Positions 366 through 10,358 of a DNA stretch of 64,000 bases are shown here, piece after piece. The translations under genes and the position numbers were made by a program. Under the pieces are notes generated by a model. That model searched no databases, had not been told where the DNA came from, and saw only the letters and a list, made by a program, of their open reading frames with translations. The stretch's first letter is position 1; the number at the start of each line of letters is the position of its first letter. Source of the DNA: Escherichia coli (lineage in GTDB: Bacteria > Pseudomonadota > Gammaproteobacteria > Enterobacterales > Enterobacteriaceae); NCBI RefSeq assembly GCF_048403405.1, contig NZ_CP183129.1; one strand, written 5' to 3'.

Positions 366-2030
<1,665 letters not shown>

Positions 2031-2048
2031 CAGGCCAGCACCGATGCC

Positions 2049-2080
2049 TGATAAAACGCTCGCTGCGTTTTATCAGGCTC
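2049..2080. terminator. Hairpin between convergent dtpD and phr (ctgataaaacgctcgctgcgttttatcag)
   Basis: Inverted repeat ctgataaaacg...cgttttatcag immediately after the dtpD stop; its far end overlaps the first codons past the phr stop. Probably a bidirectional terminator. Confidence 0.4.
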
Positions 2081-3491
2081 CTTTCCTCGCTTCTTCGTAC
2101 GCTGCCAGCGTTCGCAGCCTTGCCTCTTTGTGATCAACTATCGGTTGCGGATAATCCAGCGTCACACCTGCTTTCTGCGCCCACTTCCACGGCTCATGCA
2201 CCACTTTCCCTGGCACATCGCGCAGTTCCGGTAGCCACTGGCGGATAAACTCGCCTTCGCGGTCAAATTTCTCGCCCTGGGTTGTCGGGTTAAAAATACG
2301 AAAATACGGCGCTGCATCGGTTCCGGTTGAAGCGGCCCACTGCCAGCCACCGTTATTAGCTGCCAAATCACCATCAATCAGCTGCGACATGAAATATCGC
2401 TCGCCTTCGCGCCAGTCGATCAACAAATCTTTCACCAGAAAACTGGCTGTAATCATCCGTAGCCTGTTATGCATCCAGCCAGTGCTGTTAAGCTGACGCA
2501 TGGCAGCATCGACAATCGGGTATCCCGTTTTGCCTTCCTGCCAGACCTGTAAATGTGCGGGATTGCTCTGCCACTGCACACGATCCGTCCAGGCAATAAA
2601 CGGACAATGTTTACACAACGAGGGGTAATACGTCATCAGATGACGGTAGAACTCGCGCCAGATCAGCTCACTAAGCCAGACACTACCGGCCCCACCGTCC
2701 AGCGCCTGCGGCTGTTCCGCCAACAAGCGATGCAAACACTGGCGAGGCGATAACCCGCCCGTTGCCAGGCTGGCGGACAAACGACTGGTGCCTTCCACTG
2801 CCGGAAAATCTCGTTGTTGCTCATATTCTCCGGCACCGTTCTGGCAAAACTGGCGTAATTGCGCAATCGCCGCTTTTTCTTCCACCGGGAAATGCGCAGT
2901 ATCGAAAGGCTGACGAGGATAATTCAGCGTAATGGATGGCGCGGGATCTATCGATCCACTACTACGTACTTTTGGCGCAGCGACGCACTCCGGCATCCCT
3001 TCCCGCAGCCGTTTCAGCCAGGCGTTTTTAAATGGCGTAAAGACTTTGTACATCTCATGATTGCCAGTCATCACCGCCCCCGGCGGCAGGATCACGCTGT
3101 CGTCAAATCCTTCACACACCACGTTACGCAGCGTTCTCTCAACCTGCGCATCCCGCGCCCGCTCATTCACCTCATACTGATAGTTATAAAACAGATGGGT
3201 AACACGATTTTCCGCGCACACCTGTTTAACTATTTCGACGCTGGCAGCAAAGTCATCCACTTCATGAAACAGCAAAGGAATGCCTTTTTCCGCCAGCGCG
3301 ATTTGTAGCCTATTCAGTTGAGCATTGATAAGTTCAGCCTGACGCGGCGACACATTATGCGCCGCCCACTGGCGTGGTGTAGCGATATACAACGCCAGCA
3401 CGCGTGCAGACGAATAGCGGCAAGCGGCAGCCAGCGCGAGATTATCGTGCTGACGTAAATCCTGGCGAAACCAGACCAGATGGGTAGTCAT
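2073..3491 (-). CDS. phr: Deoxyribodipyrimidine photolyase
   Basis: 472-aa product beginning MTTHLVWFRQDLRQHDNLALAAA with the FAD-binding C-terminal region (WQWAASTGTDAAPYFRIFNP); length and sequence match E. coli photolyase. Confidence 0.95.
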   Translation of the reverse strand: MTTHLVWFRQDLRQHDNLALAAACRYSSARVLALYIATPRQWAAHNVSPRQAELINAQLNRLQIALAEKGIPLLFHEVDDFAASVEIVKQVCAENRVTHLFYNYQYEVNERARDAQVERTLRNVVCEGFDDSVILPPGAVMTGNHEMYKVFTPFKNAWLKRLREGMPECVAAPKVRSSGSIDPAPSITLNYPRQPFDTAHFPVEEKAAIAQLRQFCQNGAGEYEQQRDFPAVEGTSRLSASLATGGLSPRQCLHRLLAEQPQALDGGAGSVWLSELIWREFYRHLMTYYPSLCKHCPFIAWTDRVQWQSNPAHLQVWQEGKTGYPIVDAAMRQLNSTGWMHNRLRMITASFLVKDLLIDWREGERYFMSQLIDGDLAANNGGWQWAASTGTDAAPYFRIFNPTTQGEKFDREGEFIRQWLPELRDVPGKVVHEPWKWAQKAGVTLDYPQPIVDHKEARLRTLAAYEEARKGA

Positions 3492-3997
3492 AAAACTCCT
3501 GAATGGCGCAAGTTAATCACATGCGGCCAAAGTTCGAAATAACGCTGCCCTGAAAGCCAGGCGTCAGGATAAAGCGCCATATAGTGTTTGATACGCATCA
3601 GCGGCGCAAGAAGCGGTTGCTCGCCACGGCGATAACTGTCGATAAGCGCCGCCAGCTGCTGGCGTTCTGTGGAATCAATATGCGGGCGAAAATACCCCTG
3701 AACGTGCATCAAAACGTTGGTGTGATCGCGCGGGTTGGCGGGATGAGAAAGCAAAACAATTACGCGTTGACGGTACTGGCTGTAAAAATCATCCAGATTT
3801 TGCCACTGGTGAATATCAGCCACAAACGGGCCAAGTTTGCGGTATTCCGGCTGGGAATGCGCCAGAAAGACGAGTTTATAGCGGCTGTGATAATCGTTGA
3901 GTGCCCCGCGCGTTAAGCCATGTTCTTTCAGTCGATATAGCTCATAAATCGCGAAGATGCGGATTAGGGTGCTTTCATCAAATCGTTGCTGATTCAT
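3488..3997 (-). CDS. ybgA: DUF1722-family protein YbgA
   Basis: 169-aa ORF directly upstream of phr with a 4-nt ATGA stop/start overlap (3488..3491), the known ybgA-phr operon arrangement. Confidence 0.85.
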   Translation of the reverse strand: MNQQRFDESTLIRIFAIYELYRLKEHGLTRGALNDYHSRYKLVFLAHSQPEYRKLGPFVADIHQWQNLDDFYSQYRQRVIVLLSHPANPRDHTNVLMHVQGYFRPHIDSTERQQLAALIDSYRRGEQPLLAPLMRIKHYMALYPDAWLSGQRYFELWPHVINLRHSGVL

Positions 3998-4057
3998 TAC
4001 TGCTCCTGAGATATTAACAGGAGTAAGTGTAGACGTTGGGAAATGATGTTTGTGAAG

Positions 4058-4906
4058 TTAATCCTGTTGTAGCAGGACAAGATTACGAAAGCGCGCTCCC
4101 CGCAAGGACTGACGCCAGATAGTTTCTGTCCATGGCTGCCCTTTCCATTCAAACGTGAAATCAATAAGTTCATCAGGGACACCGCAAACAATATGAAGAC
4201 GGATTTCTTCTCTGCCGTGACTCTTTTCACTCATTGCGAAACTGTCATGCTCTGGATTATTTAATTCTTTCAGTGGGAATTTTTCCTCAAAGGCTTTATT
4301 AAGCCGTCCCTGATTTCCTTTTACAGCGAATAAATAATCACCGCCCTGTTTTTGTATCTTCTCTGCGATATCTTTCTGGCAACCCATCGCATCAGTTGTG
4401 ATAATTTTTCCTTTAATATCCAACATGTTAAGAAGTTCAGGGATAGCTGTGATCTCATTGGATTTCTCATCCGTCCTGATCTGTCCGATGACCAGACTGT
4501 GCATTGTTGAGAACGCACTAATGACATGAATCGCTCCCCTGCGGCGACTCTTGTCATAAGAATGCCGGAGCGTTTTTCCATCAATTGCAATAACGTCTTT
4601 ATCATCTGAAGAATGGCAGTCACGCATCCAGTTAATAAAGCACTCGTGAAATTTTGCAGGACTGATACAGGATACAACTCTGGCAATGGTATCGTGAACA
4701 GGAATACCATTTTCAAAATCACCATATTGCTTCAAAAAATCGAGATGTGTTTCCCCAAAATCCTCTATATCTTCCCAGCCTTCTGCACCAGAAATAACGG
4801 CACAAATAGTCAACAGTAGAATATCCGACAATTTATGTTCCACTTTCCAGGCTTGTCTGTAATCGGGGATAATAGAAATATGTTCCATCAATTTTTTAAG
4901 TTCCAT
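4058..4906 (-). mobile_element. ISAs1-family (H-repeat-associated) transposase, 3'-truncated
   Basis: 282-aa ORF starting [58 protein letters not shown], the conserved H-repeat/ISAs1 N-terminus. It is shorter than the ~370-aa full-length proteins and its last ~30 residues ([26 protein letters not shown]) read as non-conserved sequence past a deletion breakpoint. Confidence 0.8.
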
Positions 4907-5013
4907 TTTGTTCTCCTTAATTATGTAAAGAGTATTTGATCATGTATACGCAATAAAAAACAGCTTCAGGTAATGAGGAATATCTCAATTTTTAAACATA
5001 AAATGCGAATTAC

Positions 5014-5615
5014 TTAGTACAAAAAGTGTACTTCTGATGATCTTTCCCTGTCCTTGGCACCATCATTTTTTGACGCTTCAAAAATACTACTACAAGTGAG
5101 TTTAGAAAACTCTTTTCCAGATAATTCTCCAGGTTGTAATCCTCCGCCGCCAAAAATCCTACTCCCAGGATTTCCATACCTATTTAGAGCATATGAATAG
5201 CAATTATTTACGGCAAGATAATACGCATCTGAATTTAGTTCTCGATTGAATACTGGAGCAGGTTTATCAATTAAGCCCAGCGGATCAATAGAATAGGTTG
5301 GATGTATGGAAGCATATACATACTGATTCCACCCGCCTTCCAGCCCAATCGGTTCCTGAGTGATATACCGCCCCTGCAGCGGGTCATAATAGCGGTGGCG
5401 GTTGTAATACAGGCCGGACTCCTCATCATACTGCTGCCCCGGCAGACGGATAAGCTGCTGCAGGTGCTGCGGGTTCTCTTCAGTCAGCAGGTTGCCCCAT
5501 TCATCATATTCTGCGCACCATTCTGTTGCCCCGTCAGGGCTGATAAGCGTCAGCGGCAGGCCGCGATAGTCGCAGTGGTAGAGGTGGATTATTCGCAGTG
5601 GTAGAGGTGGATTAT
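5014..5615 (-). pseudogene. Orphan rhs C-terminal fragment (core end plus alternative C-terminal tip), no start codon
   Basis: My minus-strand translation gives an open frame [106 protein letters not shown] followed by a distinct ~85-aa tip ending ...[12 protein letters not shown] and a TAA at 5016..5014. Nucleotides ~5290..5560 are a near-copy of rhsC 6650..6930. The frame contains no Met, which is why the ORF track shows only the antisense ORF 5302..5604. Confidence 0.8.
5561..5613. repeat. Tandem direct repeat, 23-bp unit cgcagtggtagaggtggattatt x2 plus partial third copy
   Basis: Read directly: 5561..5583 and 5584..5606 are identical, followed by cgcagtg. It lies at the upstream boundary of the orphan rhs fragment and corresponds to rhsC sequence near 6908..6930. 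Confidence 0.85.
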
Positions 5616-5706
5616 TCGCAGTGATCTATATGCCAACGTCATCTTATTTTTCATCTACTCCAACGAGTAGACAAGTTTTTTATTAAACCATTTATACCTT
5701 TTACGA

Positions 5707-6210
5707 TTAAATTTTCTTATGTAATAGAGGTGAATAATCTTCCCAAAAATCCATACAAGCTTTACTTGCATAAAAGAATCCAGCGTCTGATTCATAAGAC
5801 ATAAACTGTGCAATAATAGATAGTTGTATATCTGAAAAATTAAAAACAAAATTCAAAAAATCATCGTGATCCCGATACTCAGGACATAAATATTGTTGAA
5901 TAAAATCGGATTCAAAAACCCAAAAATCATTCTTATTAAACAACGAGGCATAAATATACAGAGGGATGTAATAGCAGAATACTTTCTCAGGGAGGAATGT
6001 AATTCCTAACTCTAAAGCATAAGAGTCATCCTTTATTTTAAAATTGTTGGCTATTTCATTCCATTGTTTCTTTTGGAAAAAATTATATACAATATCCAGT
6101 TCCTCCAGCCCTGTAATATCATTTGAAATATGAGGTAATGGCTGGCATGGGAAATGAATCATAAGTTCATCATAGACTGCACTCTCGTTAGAGAAAATTA
6201 TTTTTTTCAT
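5707..6210 (-). CDS. Putative RhsC-associated immunity protein (RhsI-type)
   Basis: AT-rich ORF directly downstream of rhsC. The ATG at 6210..6208 ([20 protein letters not shown]...) overlaps the rhsC TGA (6209..6207) in an ATGA arrangement. The track start at 6228 is a TTG extension. No recognisable catalytic motifs; position is typical for an Rhs immunity gene. Confidence 0.7.
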
Positions 6211-9200
6211 TTTATTAAGCCACTGCAATCAGCTGCTGTTTTATATGCTTTATTCTCTTCTTCCATATGGGCCTTATCTCCACCACCAAAGCACTGATTA
6301 TTAATCTGCTTTCTGACCGAAGCGCACGCCAAATTTATCTCGTACCGTCTCAATATTTCTTTTCTCAGCATCTGAGGAGCGCAAGCTCTAGACTGGTTAC
6401 ATAATCTGTTTTTTTCATTTTGTAAGTCACTCAGGTTCTGGGGACTACAGTTACCACCAGGATTTACACCTGACTTATGTTCATCTGTTAATTTGTCGGC
6501 TTCTGGATTAACTTTACGGCCATATTGATCTCTGCGTTGTTGCCCACTTTGGATAACACCACCTGATGAAAATAAACCGCAACTCATCAGTGCTACAACA
6601 CTAAGAATTAACGGATTTAACCCTTGTGGGTCTATCTCTGAGATCGGATTTAACGGATACTGATAAAAATTCCATCCCCCCTTAAGCCCAATCGGATCCT
6701 GAGTGATATACCGCCCCTGCAGCGGGTCATAATAGCGGTGGCGGTTGTAATACAGGCCGGACTCCTCATCATACTGCTGACCCGGCAGGCGGATGAGCTG
6801 CTGCAGCTGATGCGGGTTCTCTTCATTCAGCAGGTTGCCCCATTCATCGTATTCTGCGTACCACGCTGTTGTCCCTTCCGTGCTGACAAGCGCCAGCGGC
6901 AGGCCGCGATGGTCGCAGTGGTACAGGTGGATTTTTCGCGCCGGCGTGTACACCGGGTCCATCTGGTTTTGCATCTGCTCCACCGTCAGGCCGCACGATG
7001 CCAGCCAGCGGCGGCTTTCCTCGCTCACCCGGTCAGTAAGGATTTCACTTTCCAGCCGGTCGAGCATCTGCACCAGCACCGGCGGGAACACCACTCTGCC
7101 ACCGTCTTCGCCGCCGGACTGCTGAAGGGCATCCGCCAGGCTGCGGCGCTGCGTTTTCGCCAGCTCACCGGTGGCGGTTTCAACTCTGATGAGTGGCGTG
7201 AAGCTCCCCGGCTGATAAACCGTCTGGATGCGGGTTCTGTCGTTCTGTATTGTGGTCAGCCGGTCGCCGTCCCAGCCGTACCAGGTCACTTCCGGTTTCC
7301 GTGACAGCGACATCCAGCCCGTCAGGTCCCGTTCACGCCGCCATACCCGTTTTGCCACCCTGCGGCCCAGCGGGTCGTAAAGATAGCGACTTTCGACCAG
7401 CGGCTCTGCATATTGTGTCCGCGTGTAGTGCACCAGCCGGTGCCGGCTGTCGTAATGATACCGGTGAGTCCGCTCATCATCCGTGCGGATAACCCCTTCC
7501 GGGATGAGGTCGGTTTTCTCTGTCAGCCTGCCGTGACGGTCATACCGGTAAAGATAGTGCGCGTCACGGGCGATACGGTTATCCGGCCACATGCTGAGGG
7601 TGCTGTCCGGGTGCAGCTCCGGGTCGGGCAGGCGGTTGCCTGCCGGGTCCGTGGCATACGGGATGCGGATATCCAGATTCGCTGCGGTGGTGTGGACGCC
7701 GGTCAGCCTGCCGGTGTCGCTGTAGCTGTAACTCCGGGTCTGGCGCGGGCTGCTGATGCGGATGAGTTCGCCGTTGTCGTTCCAGGTGTAATCGCGGTCA
7801 TACTGCAGGCTGTTCAGGTGCTGGCTCTGTAACTGCCCGGCAGAGGTGTAAGCGGTGGTGAGTTCATAACGGCCGAAGCTGCGCAGCGTTTCCCGGTGCA
7901 GGCGGTCGCGGGTGAAATCCACCAGCGGTGTGTCGCCGAGTTTCATGCCTGACAGCCAGCCGCTGCCGTAGGTCAGCCATTCCACGGCGGGCAGGCTGTC
8001 CGGTATACAGCGGTTCGCCAGTCCCTGCGCGTTGTACGCATGTCTGGTTTCATGCTGCCAGAGCAGTGCTTCCGTCTGCGGGTGATGCACCGTCTGGCGC
8101 TCACCGGTCAGGCGGCCTTTCTCATCATACCCGTAATGCACCGTCACCCGGTGGCCTTCGCTGAGATGGCTGATGCCTGTCAGCCAGCCGCGTTCGTCAT
8201 ACTGCCACTGCTCTGCAGGTTCACCCTTCACGGTGCGGTGAGTGAGGCGGTCTGCTTCGTCATAGTGCCAGTGGGTGACCAGCCCCTCATCCTCGCTGCG
8301 GATAAGTTTACCGGTCAGGTCGTGGTGATAACGCTGTGTGCGGCCGTCAAAGCCGGTTTCCTGTATCAGCCGGTCAAGTACATCGTAACGGAAGGTGGTG
8401 TGGCTGCCGTTTTCACTGGTCAGGCGGATGACCCGCCCGGCAGCATCGTATTCCATACTGCGCGTCAGACCGCCCTGCGTGGTACGAACGGGCTTTCCCC
8501 ACGCATCGTACTGTGTCCCGTTTCTGCTGCCGTCCGGGGCAATGACGGCGGTCAGGTCACCGGCGGCGTTGTATTCATACCGCGTTTCATGGCCCTGCGT
8601 GTCTTTCACCGCAATTAACTGTCCACGGCTGTCGTATGCGCGGTACTGACTCAGCCCTTCCTCGCGGTGCACCGCCGTCACCTGACCAAAACGGTCATGG
8701 TCATAACGGGTTACATAACCGGAACAGTCAGTGACGGTCAGCAACTGACCGTAACGGCTCCATGTCATGGTTTTCCGGCTGCCGGTGGCATCTTCCGTTG
8801 CGCAGGGTAAGTCACTGTGTGGATTATCATAACGGTAGCGGGTGATATCGCCGTTGTGTGCGGTTTCCTGAATCAGACGGCCGGATTCATCATATTTGCG
8901 GCGCAACTCCAGCCCGTCAGTCCCGGTGGCTGACGTTAACTGGTTGTGGTGGTTATAGTAAAATGCCGATGCCCTGCCATCCGGTGTGGTGATGCGCGTG
9001 ATGAGTCCCGTCACCACATCCGGGCTGTACTCAGTCGTCCGGCCTGCGGCATCCGTCTGTGCCTTAAGCCCGCCCACCGCGTCAAACTGACTCTGCGTGA
9101 CGCTGCCGTCCGCGTGTTCCTTTTTCACCACCCGCTTCAGCCCGCCTTCGCCCTGCGTGTGCAGCACTTCACGGCGGTCCAGACTGTCGGTGATGGTGAT

Positions 9201-10358
9201 GCGGTCTTTCTCATACTGATACGTGTAGCTTAAGCCTGCCGGGTTTAGCTGTTCTGTCACCCGCCCGTCGCTGTCGTAACGGTAACGGATATCCGGCCGG
9301 CCCGTGTGACGGTGCGCCACCATCCGGCCCCGGTATTTATCATCGTAAGTAAAGCTGCGCACCTGTGTATTGCTGCGGTCATACACCGCCGCCAGTTCGC
9401 CGCGTGGCGTCCAGCCATAGCGCACCAGCGGCGCGGCAGGTAAATTCTCCGGGTATTCCGGGTCGTGCGTCAGCCACACGGCAGACAGACGGATGCCGTT
9501 GTCCCGGCCATATTCGGTGTAACCCGGCAGGGTATCAGGAAAAACGGACGGTTCCGTCCCGCCGGAAATGGCCTGCTGCCGGGCTTCTTCTGCCCGCTGC
9601 GCCTGCGTGGTCAGTACCAGCCGGAAGTGACGCCCGGCACCATCCGTCACGCCGGTGATTTCGCCGCTGAATTCGCCGCCAGCCTCACGGTGAAACGTCT
9701 GTGTGCGCCCGAAGCGGTCCACCAGCCCGGTCAGTACCCGGTACGGCGGCAGCGGCGCGGGCAGCACCTCATCCGCCTCCGGCACCCGCTCACACCAGCC
9801 GAGTACCCACCACGGCCCCTGCGGACTGTTTGTCGCCAGATAACGATGCGGACTCAGGCGAAGCTCTTCCGGCAGCGCCTGCCAGAGTGCGGCCAGCCGG
9901 TGACCTTCATCCAGTTTCGCCACGCCGCCGCGCACCAGCCAGAGTGACTCGCTGCGGCTGTAACCGTCCTCACCGGGAAACAGGTGCTCAAAATACAGGC
10001 TTCTGCCGCCGTTATCACTGAGTGTCAGTGTGTTATCGCGCAGCTGTAAGCGGATATCCGCAGGCATTTTCCAGCCGGGGCCGAGGCTCCCCACCGGCGC
10101 GGGCGTTTTTGTCCGGTAACTGCTGTAGGTGCGGGAGAGGATGAACGGCAGCGGGCCGGGCAGGGCAAGGTCGGTTTCGCCGGGAAGGACCTTCGCACCG
10201 AGCAGCGGATTGACCGGATGGCCGGACGTCACCCCGCCGGGGCACACCGAACAGGCCACGCCGGTGGGGGCACCAATACGTACCCCGGCTGAACCCTGAA
10301 CAATGCTACCGCCATACTGCGTCATGTCGCCCTGACGCGCCGCCGGTTTTCCGCTCAT
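6207..10358 (-). CDS. rhsC: Rhs-family polymorphic toxin (YD-repeat protein) with variable C-terminal tip
   Basis: 1383-aa product; N-terminus [31 protein letters not shown] (PAAR-like), many YD repeats ([33 protein letters not shown]), and the core-ending PxxxxDPxGL region ([32 protein letters not shown]) followed by a ~140-aa divergent tip. Chromosomal context (ybfA, kdp) matches rhsC. Confidence 0.9.

Follow-up and report, generated by a model that had tools for sequence, protein, structure and literature searches.

The H-repeat (H-rpt), listed as ISEc1 in ISfinder, is represented in Escherichia coli K-12 by the intact copies yhhI and ydcC (H-rptB and H-rptE, respectively), each exactly 1291 bp long and encoding a 378-aa transposase; these two copies served as the reference element. 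Members of the ISAs1 family carry imperfect terminal inverted repeats that start with CAGGG (ISfinder), and such ends were confirmed on the intact K-12 copies, which run from CAGGGAAAGATCATCA... to ...TTTCGTAATCTTGCCCTG and whose termini agree at 14 of the first 18 positions. The closest described relative of the locus studied here is K-12 ybfD (b0706, 'H repeat-associated putative transposase YbfD'), situated where the RhsC region meets ybgA-phr and the third tandem H-rpt of RhsC, named H-rptC3 in the nomenclature of the Hill laboratory. The three tandem H-rpts of K-12 RhsC were reportedly described by Zhao and colleagues in J Bacteriol in 1993, with the internal-deletion anatomy already implicit there. 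In K-12 the order is ybfQ, ybfL, ybfD, then ybgA and phr, where ybfQ comprises positions 1-381 of the element, ybfL is full length but decayed, and ybfD joins positions 25-913 to 1225-1291.

Here we describe the corresponding locus in a stretch of E. coli DNA of 64,000 nucleotides (contig NZ_CP183129.1), referred to below as the window. At the downstream edge of RhsC it carries what is very probably ybfD itself: a defective copy of the 1291-bp H-repeat, and a fixed, non-autonomous internal-deletion derivative that has kept both ends and has no functional transposase (Table 1). The copy descends from the ISEc1/H-rpt lineage of the ISAs1 family, and has neither a complete transposase nor the full length of the element. 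ybfD is already known, RefSeq annotates it as a pseudogene, and nothing at the locus would surprise a specialist.

The window copy and K-12 ybfD have in common the 313-bp junction, the right flank, and the 75-bp spacer, and they differ in several respects. The window holds one copy at the locus where K-12 holds three in tandem; the first 24 bp, and with them the left repeat, are missing from K-12 ybfD, whereas the left end of the window copy is complete; a TGG to TAG change at codon 254 limits the K-12 product to 253 aa, whereas the window frame is open to 282 aa; and the right end of K-12 ybfD is 86.6% identical to the intact copies as opposed to 97% in the window. Compared with the intact yhhI and ydcC copies, the window copy is 96.6% identical at the nucleotide level over the parts that it keeps and shares the same CAGGG-type ends, ribosome-binding site, and start codon, but lacks 313 bp (residues 257-360), is frameshifted thereafter, and is without the HWHVEN region. 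A further relative is the copy at the rhsB locus of strain 4621, which, like the window copy, has an internal deletion between two retained termini, but differs in its breakpoints, in the amount lost, and in its locus.

Table 1. Features of the ybfD locus and related H-rpt copies (window coordinates unless another record is named)
Feature	Coordinates	Strand	Remarks
dtpD	549-2030	+	
phr	2073-3491	-	
ybgA	3488..3997	-	DUF1722, 169 aa; first gene of ybgA-phr; Pfam and PGAP
Spacer, element right tip to ybgA start codon	3998..4072	-	75 bp; same length in 10/10 alleles
Right-tip flank variants	about 4054-4072; L005 3794-3876; L006 3791-4150		
Defective H-rpt/ISEc1 (ISAs1-family) element	4073..5050	-	978 bp; positions 1-913 joined to 1225-1291 of 1291
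Right terminal inverted repeat	4073..4090	+	CAGGACAAGATTACGAAA read inward; tip mutated
Left terminal inverted repeat	5033..5050	-	tip CAGGGAAAGATCATCA at 5050-5035; intact
Deletion junction	4138..4139	-	313 bp missing; 2-bp GC microhomology (two BLASTN blocks overlap by 2 bp)
ybfD ORF	4058..4906	-	282 codons plus stop; ORF call, Pfam, NCBIfam
Conserved part of ORF, codons 1-256	4139..4906	-	PF13808 and first two thirds of DDE domain (AIDGK, DAMGCQ)
Out-of-frame tail of ORF	4058..4138	-	26 codons plus stop, through right repeat into flank
Shine-Dalgarno AAGGAG	4913-4918	-	read from sequence
Promoter-like site TATACA-17-CATAAT	4920..4948	-	in left part of element; consensus match only
Orphan Rhs C-terminal fragment adjoining element	5014..5601	-	PF03527 RHS, E 3.4e-12
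DUF6714 ORF	5707-6228	-	173 aa; weak match, E 4.7e-05, below Pfam cut-off
Rhs protein	6207-10358	-	1383 aa; main Rhs of region
rhsB-locus copy, strain 4621	NZ_CP103479 351,350-351,927 (L010 350-927)		1-531 joined to 1245-1291; 713 bp lost; both ends kept
rhsE-locus copy, strain 4621			3'-truncated, positions 1-696
Distinct ISAs1 element, strain 4621			68-70% identity; internal stop
Full-length ISEc1 copy beside T6SS-linked Rhs, strain 4621	NZ_CP103479 4,075,450-4,076,586 (L021 13450-14586)		1291 bp; 378 open codons, ATA start

Locus, termini and deletion junction

The first 10 kb of the window correspond to the RhsC neighbourhood of E. coli, and positions 3900-5300 are 100% identical to strain 4621 and to three other complete genomes. 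The core genes at this locus have diverged unusually far from K-12 (ybgA 94.5% and phr 93.9% identity; window 549-3997 against L002), with dS values of 0.15-0.21 for ybgA, phr, and dtpD, and an identity of at least 99% to the locus is reached by only 6 of 5370 records; the window thus carries a rare, deep haplotype here. Within the 64 kb, BLASTN finds this one H-rpt copy only. No terminator-like site is predicted in the 75-bp spacer or around the ybfD-ybgA gap, promoter-like sites near the element are no more numerous than in shuffled sequence, and Rfam returns no match within window 3000-6500.

On the left of the element, the orphan Rhs fragment preserves the end of the conserved core (...DPLGL) and continues into a tip of ~75 residues, for which Pfam gives nothing beyond the RHS repeat. 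The frame of the fragment ends 12 codons inside the left end of the H-rpt, so that the element either borders on the orphan toxin tip or cuts it short; the two have no immunity ORF between them. The DUF6714 ORF overlaps the downstream end of the main Rhs gene by 22 nt and is presumably the cognate immunity protein of that Rhs. On the right, three different sequences follow the H-rpt tip depending on the strain, 18, 83, and about 360 bp in length, and converge some 55 bp ahead of the ybgA start on CACAAA/CATAAA..., a point that looks like a fixed limit, with the variable RhsC region on one side and the core genome on the other. One full-length copy next to ybgA, Z869 of O157:H7, was considered as the undeleted ancestor at this site and rejected: 83 bp separate its right tip from this shared sequence, as opposed to 18 bp in the window, and the copy does not therefore represent the same insertion junction.

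Aligned to the yhhI copy by BLASTN, the window copy falls into two blocks, with element positions 1-913 at window 5050-4138 (96.6% identity) and positions 1225-1291 at window 4139-4073 (97.0% identity, 65 of 67 bases). Its 978 bp thus fall short of the intact 1291 bp by 313 bp that are missing internally, corresponding to element positions of about 913-1225. Where the intact sequence reads ...GGAAAGGGC|TGAAG... at one breakpoint and ...CGAAAAGC|AGCCATGG... at the other, the window reads GGAAAGGGCAGCCATGG. A single internal deletion joined transposase codon 256 to the last 67 bp of the element, out of frame, and slippage or illegitimate recombination at the microhomology is the probable mechanism. 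The junction, the right flank (CTACAACAGGATTAACTT...), and the 75-bp spacer are identical in 10 of 10 sampled alleles, and the deletion is thus a single old event.

CAGGG-type ends are present at both termini of the window copy. The left tip is identical to the intact K-12 left tip over its first 16 nt; the right tip, CAGGACAAGATTACGA (4073-4088), has one substitution within CAGGG, a G to A change at position 5, and the two repeats agree at 12 of 18 positions (14 in the intact copies). A search of the 64 kb with the pattern CAGGRMAAGATYAYSA matches only the left tip and 4073-4088, in inverted orientation, against 0 matches expected by chance; since the pattern was written from these very ends, the real evidence is the identity of 65 of 67 bases to the intact right ends. 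Comparison of the flanks, ...GCCAAGGA and CTACAACA..., brings out no direct repeat of 3-12 bp that could be a target-site duplication, which says little, given that the intact K-12 copies, inspected by eye, also lack one.

The truncated frame and its decay across E. coli

The original prediction had described an H-repeat ORF with some 250 conserved N-terminal residues that diverges, stops early, and ends 60 bp from ybgA, and in these respects it was accurate: 250 of the 256 N-terminal residues are identical to YhhI and the sequence is unrelated from residue 257 on, the product has 282 aa as opposed to 378 aa, and 60 bp exactly (3998-4057) lie between the ORF and ybgA. The matches given below are not due to chance. 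PF13808 matches aa 8-94 (E 3.5e-34), and PF01609 matches aa 102-232 (E 1.3e-18) over profile positions 3-139 of 200 only. Membership in the ISAs1 family is indicated by NCBIfam NF033564 'ISAs1 family transposase' (aa 29-255, 295 bits against a cut-off of 70), though the profile is covered only from 1 to 229 of 314; intact K-12 YhhI (378 aa) covers both profiles in full (NF033564 1-314/314, PF01609 3-200/200). In strain 4621, PGAP labels the stretch equivalent to window 4139-4906 as 'ybfD, ISAs1 family transposase, incomplete, missing C-terminus', a pseudogene.

A loss of 313 bp, not being divisible by three, shifts the frame after the junction. The ORF ends near ybgA because the shifted frame reads the last 67 bp with the right repeat and meets a TAA 12 nt beyond; the 60-bp gap is small for this reason, the frameshifted ORF running through the right repeat and 12 nt of flank, and not because flanking sequence was lost.

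YhhI and an ISAs1 paralogue of strain 4621 that is 50% identical to it have three conserved motifs in common, namely AIDGK (D109), DAMGCQ (D172), and HWHVENKLHWRLD (E306), the third of them as HWxVEN. PF01609 transposases have a usual layout of catalytic residues, and by comparison with it D109, D172, and E306 would form the DDE triad, with HWHVEN carrying the probable catalytic glutamate; a sequence search of the PDB for structural support found no relative. HWHVEN (aa 302-307 of YhhI) lies within the deleted part and is absent from the window ORF, since the deletion takes residues 257-360 and frameshifts the remainder, and with the loss of this motif the copy cannot move by itself. Whichever residues are catalytic, one third of the family profile is missing and no active transposase can be made from the copy; a product of about 378 aa with the C-terminal glutamate motif is not present.

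The distribution of the deleted element was assessed in 60 evenly spaced records of the 5370 that matched. It lies next to ybgA as one uninterrupted match in 32 of the 60; another five have about 370-650 extra bp at ybgA, and the two of these that were fetched (H77, H107) hold a full-length copy; three show multi-piece tandem arrangements; and in the remaining 20 the best match lies elsewhere. By this measure, roughly half of about 5,400 complete E. coli genomes carry the same junction at the same site, ybfD being a fixed chromosomal pseudogene. Copy number at the locus varies from one in the window to two in several strains and three in K-12. In strain 14EC017 (L015 214-281), the left tip is duplicated in tandem, with two CAGGGAAAGATCATCAGAAGTTCAC... 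tips 34 bp apart.

Ten alleles picked for diversity (the window, K-12, NCTC9088, 405, P15-25, 14EC017, 1585m1, HB-Coli0, MSB1_9I, and E2865) document the decay of the frame. Stops occur as Q18* in four strains, E65* in P15-25, K119* in strain 405, the nearest distinct haplotype to the window, and W254* in all seven K-12-type alleles. The frame beyond the junction stops after 8 codons in 405, P15-25, and the seven K-12-type alleles and is open only in the window. An open frame of 282 codons is thus peculiar to this lineage and is what is left where no stop has yet arisen. ybfD is a decaying pseudogene, marked by independent stops and by mosaic recombinant alleles.

Preserved ends and the question of mobility

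The original prediction further held that a deletion had run out through the 3' end of the element, removing the end of the transposase gene together with any terminal inverted repeat, and had left a one-ended, probably immobile stump. The short ORF, its end so close to ybgA, and the PGAP wording 'missing C-terminus' are all in keeping with such a model, and the gene is indeed truncated. However, alignment with the intact H-rpt copies shows that the lesion is internal, and a search for terminal repeats on both sides recovers one at each end: the last 67 bp of the element lie at 4139-4073, ending in the right repeat, and the spacer to ybgA is of constant length in all ten alleles. Both the 3' terminus and the right repeat are therefore in place, the alignment refutes the stump, and we regard that model as next to impossible. 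Re-analysis thus recovered both IS ends, and no full-length transposase. Immobility is still the likeliest state of the copy, but for reasons other than a missing end. With two termini in place, the copy could also be imagined as a still mobilisable, MITE-like element whose ends are cut in trans by the ISEc1 transposase. Strain 4621 (NZ_CP103479), treated as the window's own genome in the search for other copies, carries a full-length ISEc1 ORF of 378 codons by its T6SS-linked Rhs locus, called intact by PGAP, so that a source of transposase is conceivable and mobilisation in trans is formally possible. The rhsB-locus H-rpt of the same strain has a different internal deletion with both ends kept, and internal deletions that spare both ends seem to recur in H-rpt. 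Full-length 1291-bp copies with 92-97% identity also exist in other genera: among the 100,044 GTDB species representatives, a control pattern located them in Escherichia sp. E1V33, E. whittamii, and Pseudocitrobacter vendiensis, along with contig-truncated copies in Citrobacter and another MAG. Against mobilisation, the junction has 0 matches in that same set of representatives, and in every genome sampled, the population records and the ten alleles alike, it was seen among the matches listed only beside ybgA. Nor is there a target-site duplication at the window copy, the conserved CAGGG tip of the right repeat carries a substitution, and the sole full-length ORF located in strain 4621 starts with ATA, not ATG. 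Transposition of H-rpt has, moreover, not been observed in E. coli (PMC3032704). A mobilisable element is accordingly extremely improbable. The fixed, non-autonomous derivative named at the outset is favoured over it, and present-day mobility has probably been lost: the absence of the catalytic C-terminal part together with fixation at one site in thousands of genomes makes immobility the likeliest state.

Exchange among copies and apparent constraint

Typing of the alleles at the 52 sites where K-12 ybfL and ybfD differ reveals mosaics of ybfL type and ybfD type that change over at different places: in MSB1_9I the switch falls between positions 315 and 363, in HB-Coli0 and E2865 it falls between 653 and 657, and 1585m1 and NCTC9088 show more complex patterns. 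Homologous recombination with other H-rpt copies, both neighbouring and distant, reshuffles the 5' part of ybfD time and again. The right ends present a further observation. In the window (4073-4139) the right end has 2 differences from the intact copies in 67 positions; in the K-12-type ybfD (L002 11860-11926) it has 9 in 67 (86.6% identity), next to a 5' part of 889 bp at 96.2%. Gene conversion may pass over so short a right end, which would then show how old the copy truly is. A recent donor of gene conversion was sought in strain 4621 and none was close among the four copies located (one or two others stood outside the comparison): identity to the window copy is 95.5% for the rhsB-locus copy, 92.0% for the rhsE-locus copy, 68-70% for the distinct ISAs1 element, and 95.7% for the full-length copy at the T6SS locus, which differs at 35 of 768 coding nt. 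The dkgB region of this strain contains no H-rpt copy.

Truncated transposases are known to inhibit Tn5 or P elements, and by analogy the truncated protein might be kept by selection, for example as a domesticated trans-acting inhibitor of the H-rpt transposase. The dN/dS ratio over the first 256 codons is 0.05-0.30 across all pairs (0.20 between the window and K-12 ybfD, 0.08-0.09 against the intact copies), as low as in functional neighbours (ybgA 0.17, phr 0.12), and would alone suggest constraint; dN between the window and K-12 ybfD, at 0.027, is far below the local neutral dS given by ybgA, phr, and dtpD. The 768-nt coding part is free of indels in 10 of 10 alleles, PF13808 at the N terminus and part of the DDE domain are retained, and a strong ribosome-binding site, AAGGAG, lies upstream of the ORF. 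The ybfD probe signal also rises in long-term stationary phase, with a probe that probably cross-hybridises with other copies (PMC4032248). Nevertheless, independent early stops at codons 18, 65, and 119 interrupt 6 of the 10 alleles, including that of strain 405, and dN/dS is just as low, 0.19, between the stop-bearing alleles 405 and P15-25, from which it follows that the low ratio is a legacy of the variation received from functional paralogues. The mosaic alleles attest to frequent exchange among copies, and about one third of the sampled records lack any H-rpt next to ybgA. Selection on the truncated protein was dropped as the main reading on account of the independent stops, the equally low ratios in stop-bearing pairs, and the mosaic recombinants, and we consider it very unlikely. 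The simplest reading is that H-rpt copies often undergo unequal crossing-over and gene conversion with one another, and thereby take in variation already filtered in functional elements. Also highly doubtful is the idea that ybfD is not inert: the N-terminal 256-residue product, or the two intact-looking ends, would titrate or inhibit the H-rpt transposase and so account for the presence of the copy in about half of E. coli, and the unusually low nonsynonymous divergence would come from selection and not from gene conversion; were it true, such inhibition would help explain why H-rpt transposition has never been seen.

The finding itself matters little beyond correct annotation. The label 'missing C-terminus', in RefSeq as in the original prediction, hides an internal deletion with both IS ends preserved, and it is this anatomy that would decide if mobilisation in trans, or a role as recombination partner, is open to the copy. 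The locus is also a clear case of concerted evolution, in which tandem and dispersed H-rpts exchange so frequently that a demonstrable pseudogene shows dN/dS values of 0.1-0.2. This calls for caution in taking low dN/dS in repeated elements as evidence of function.
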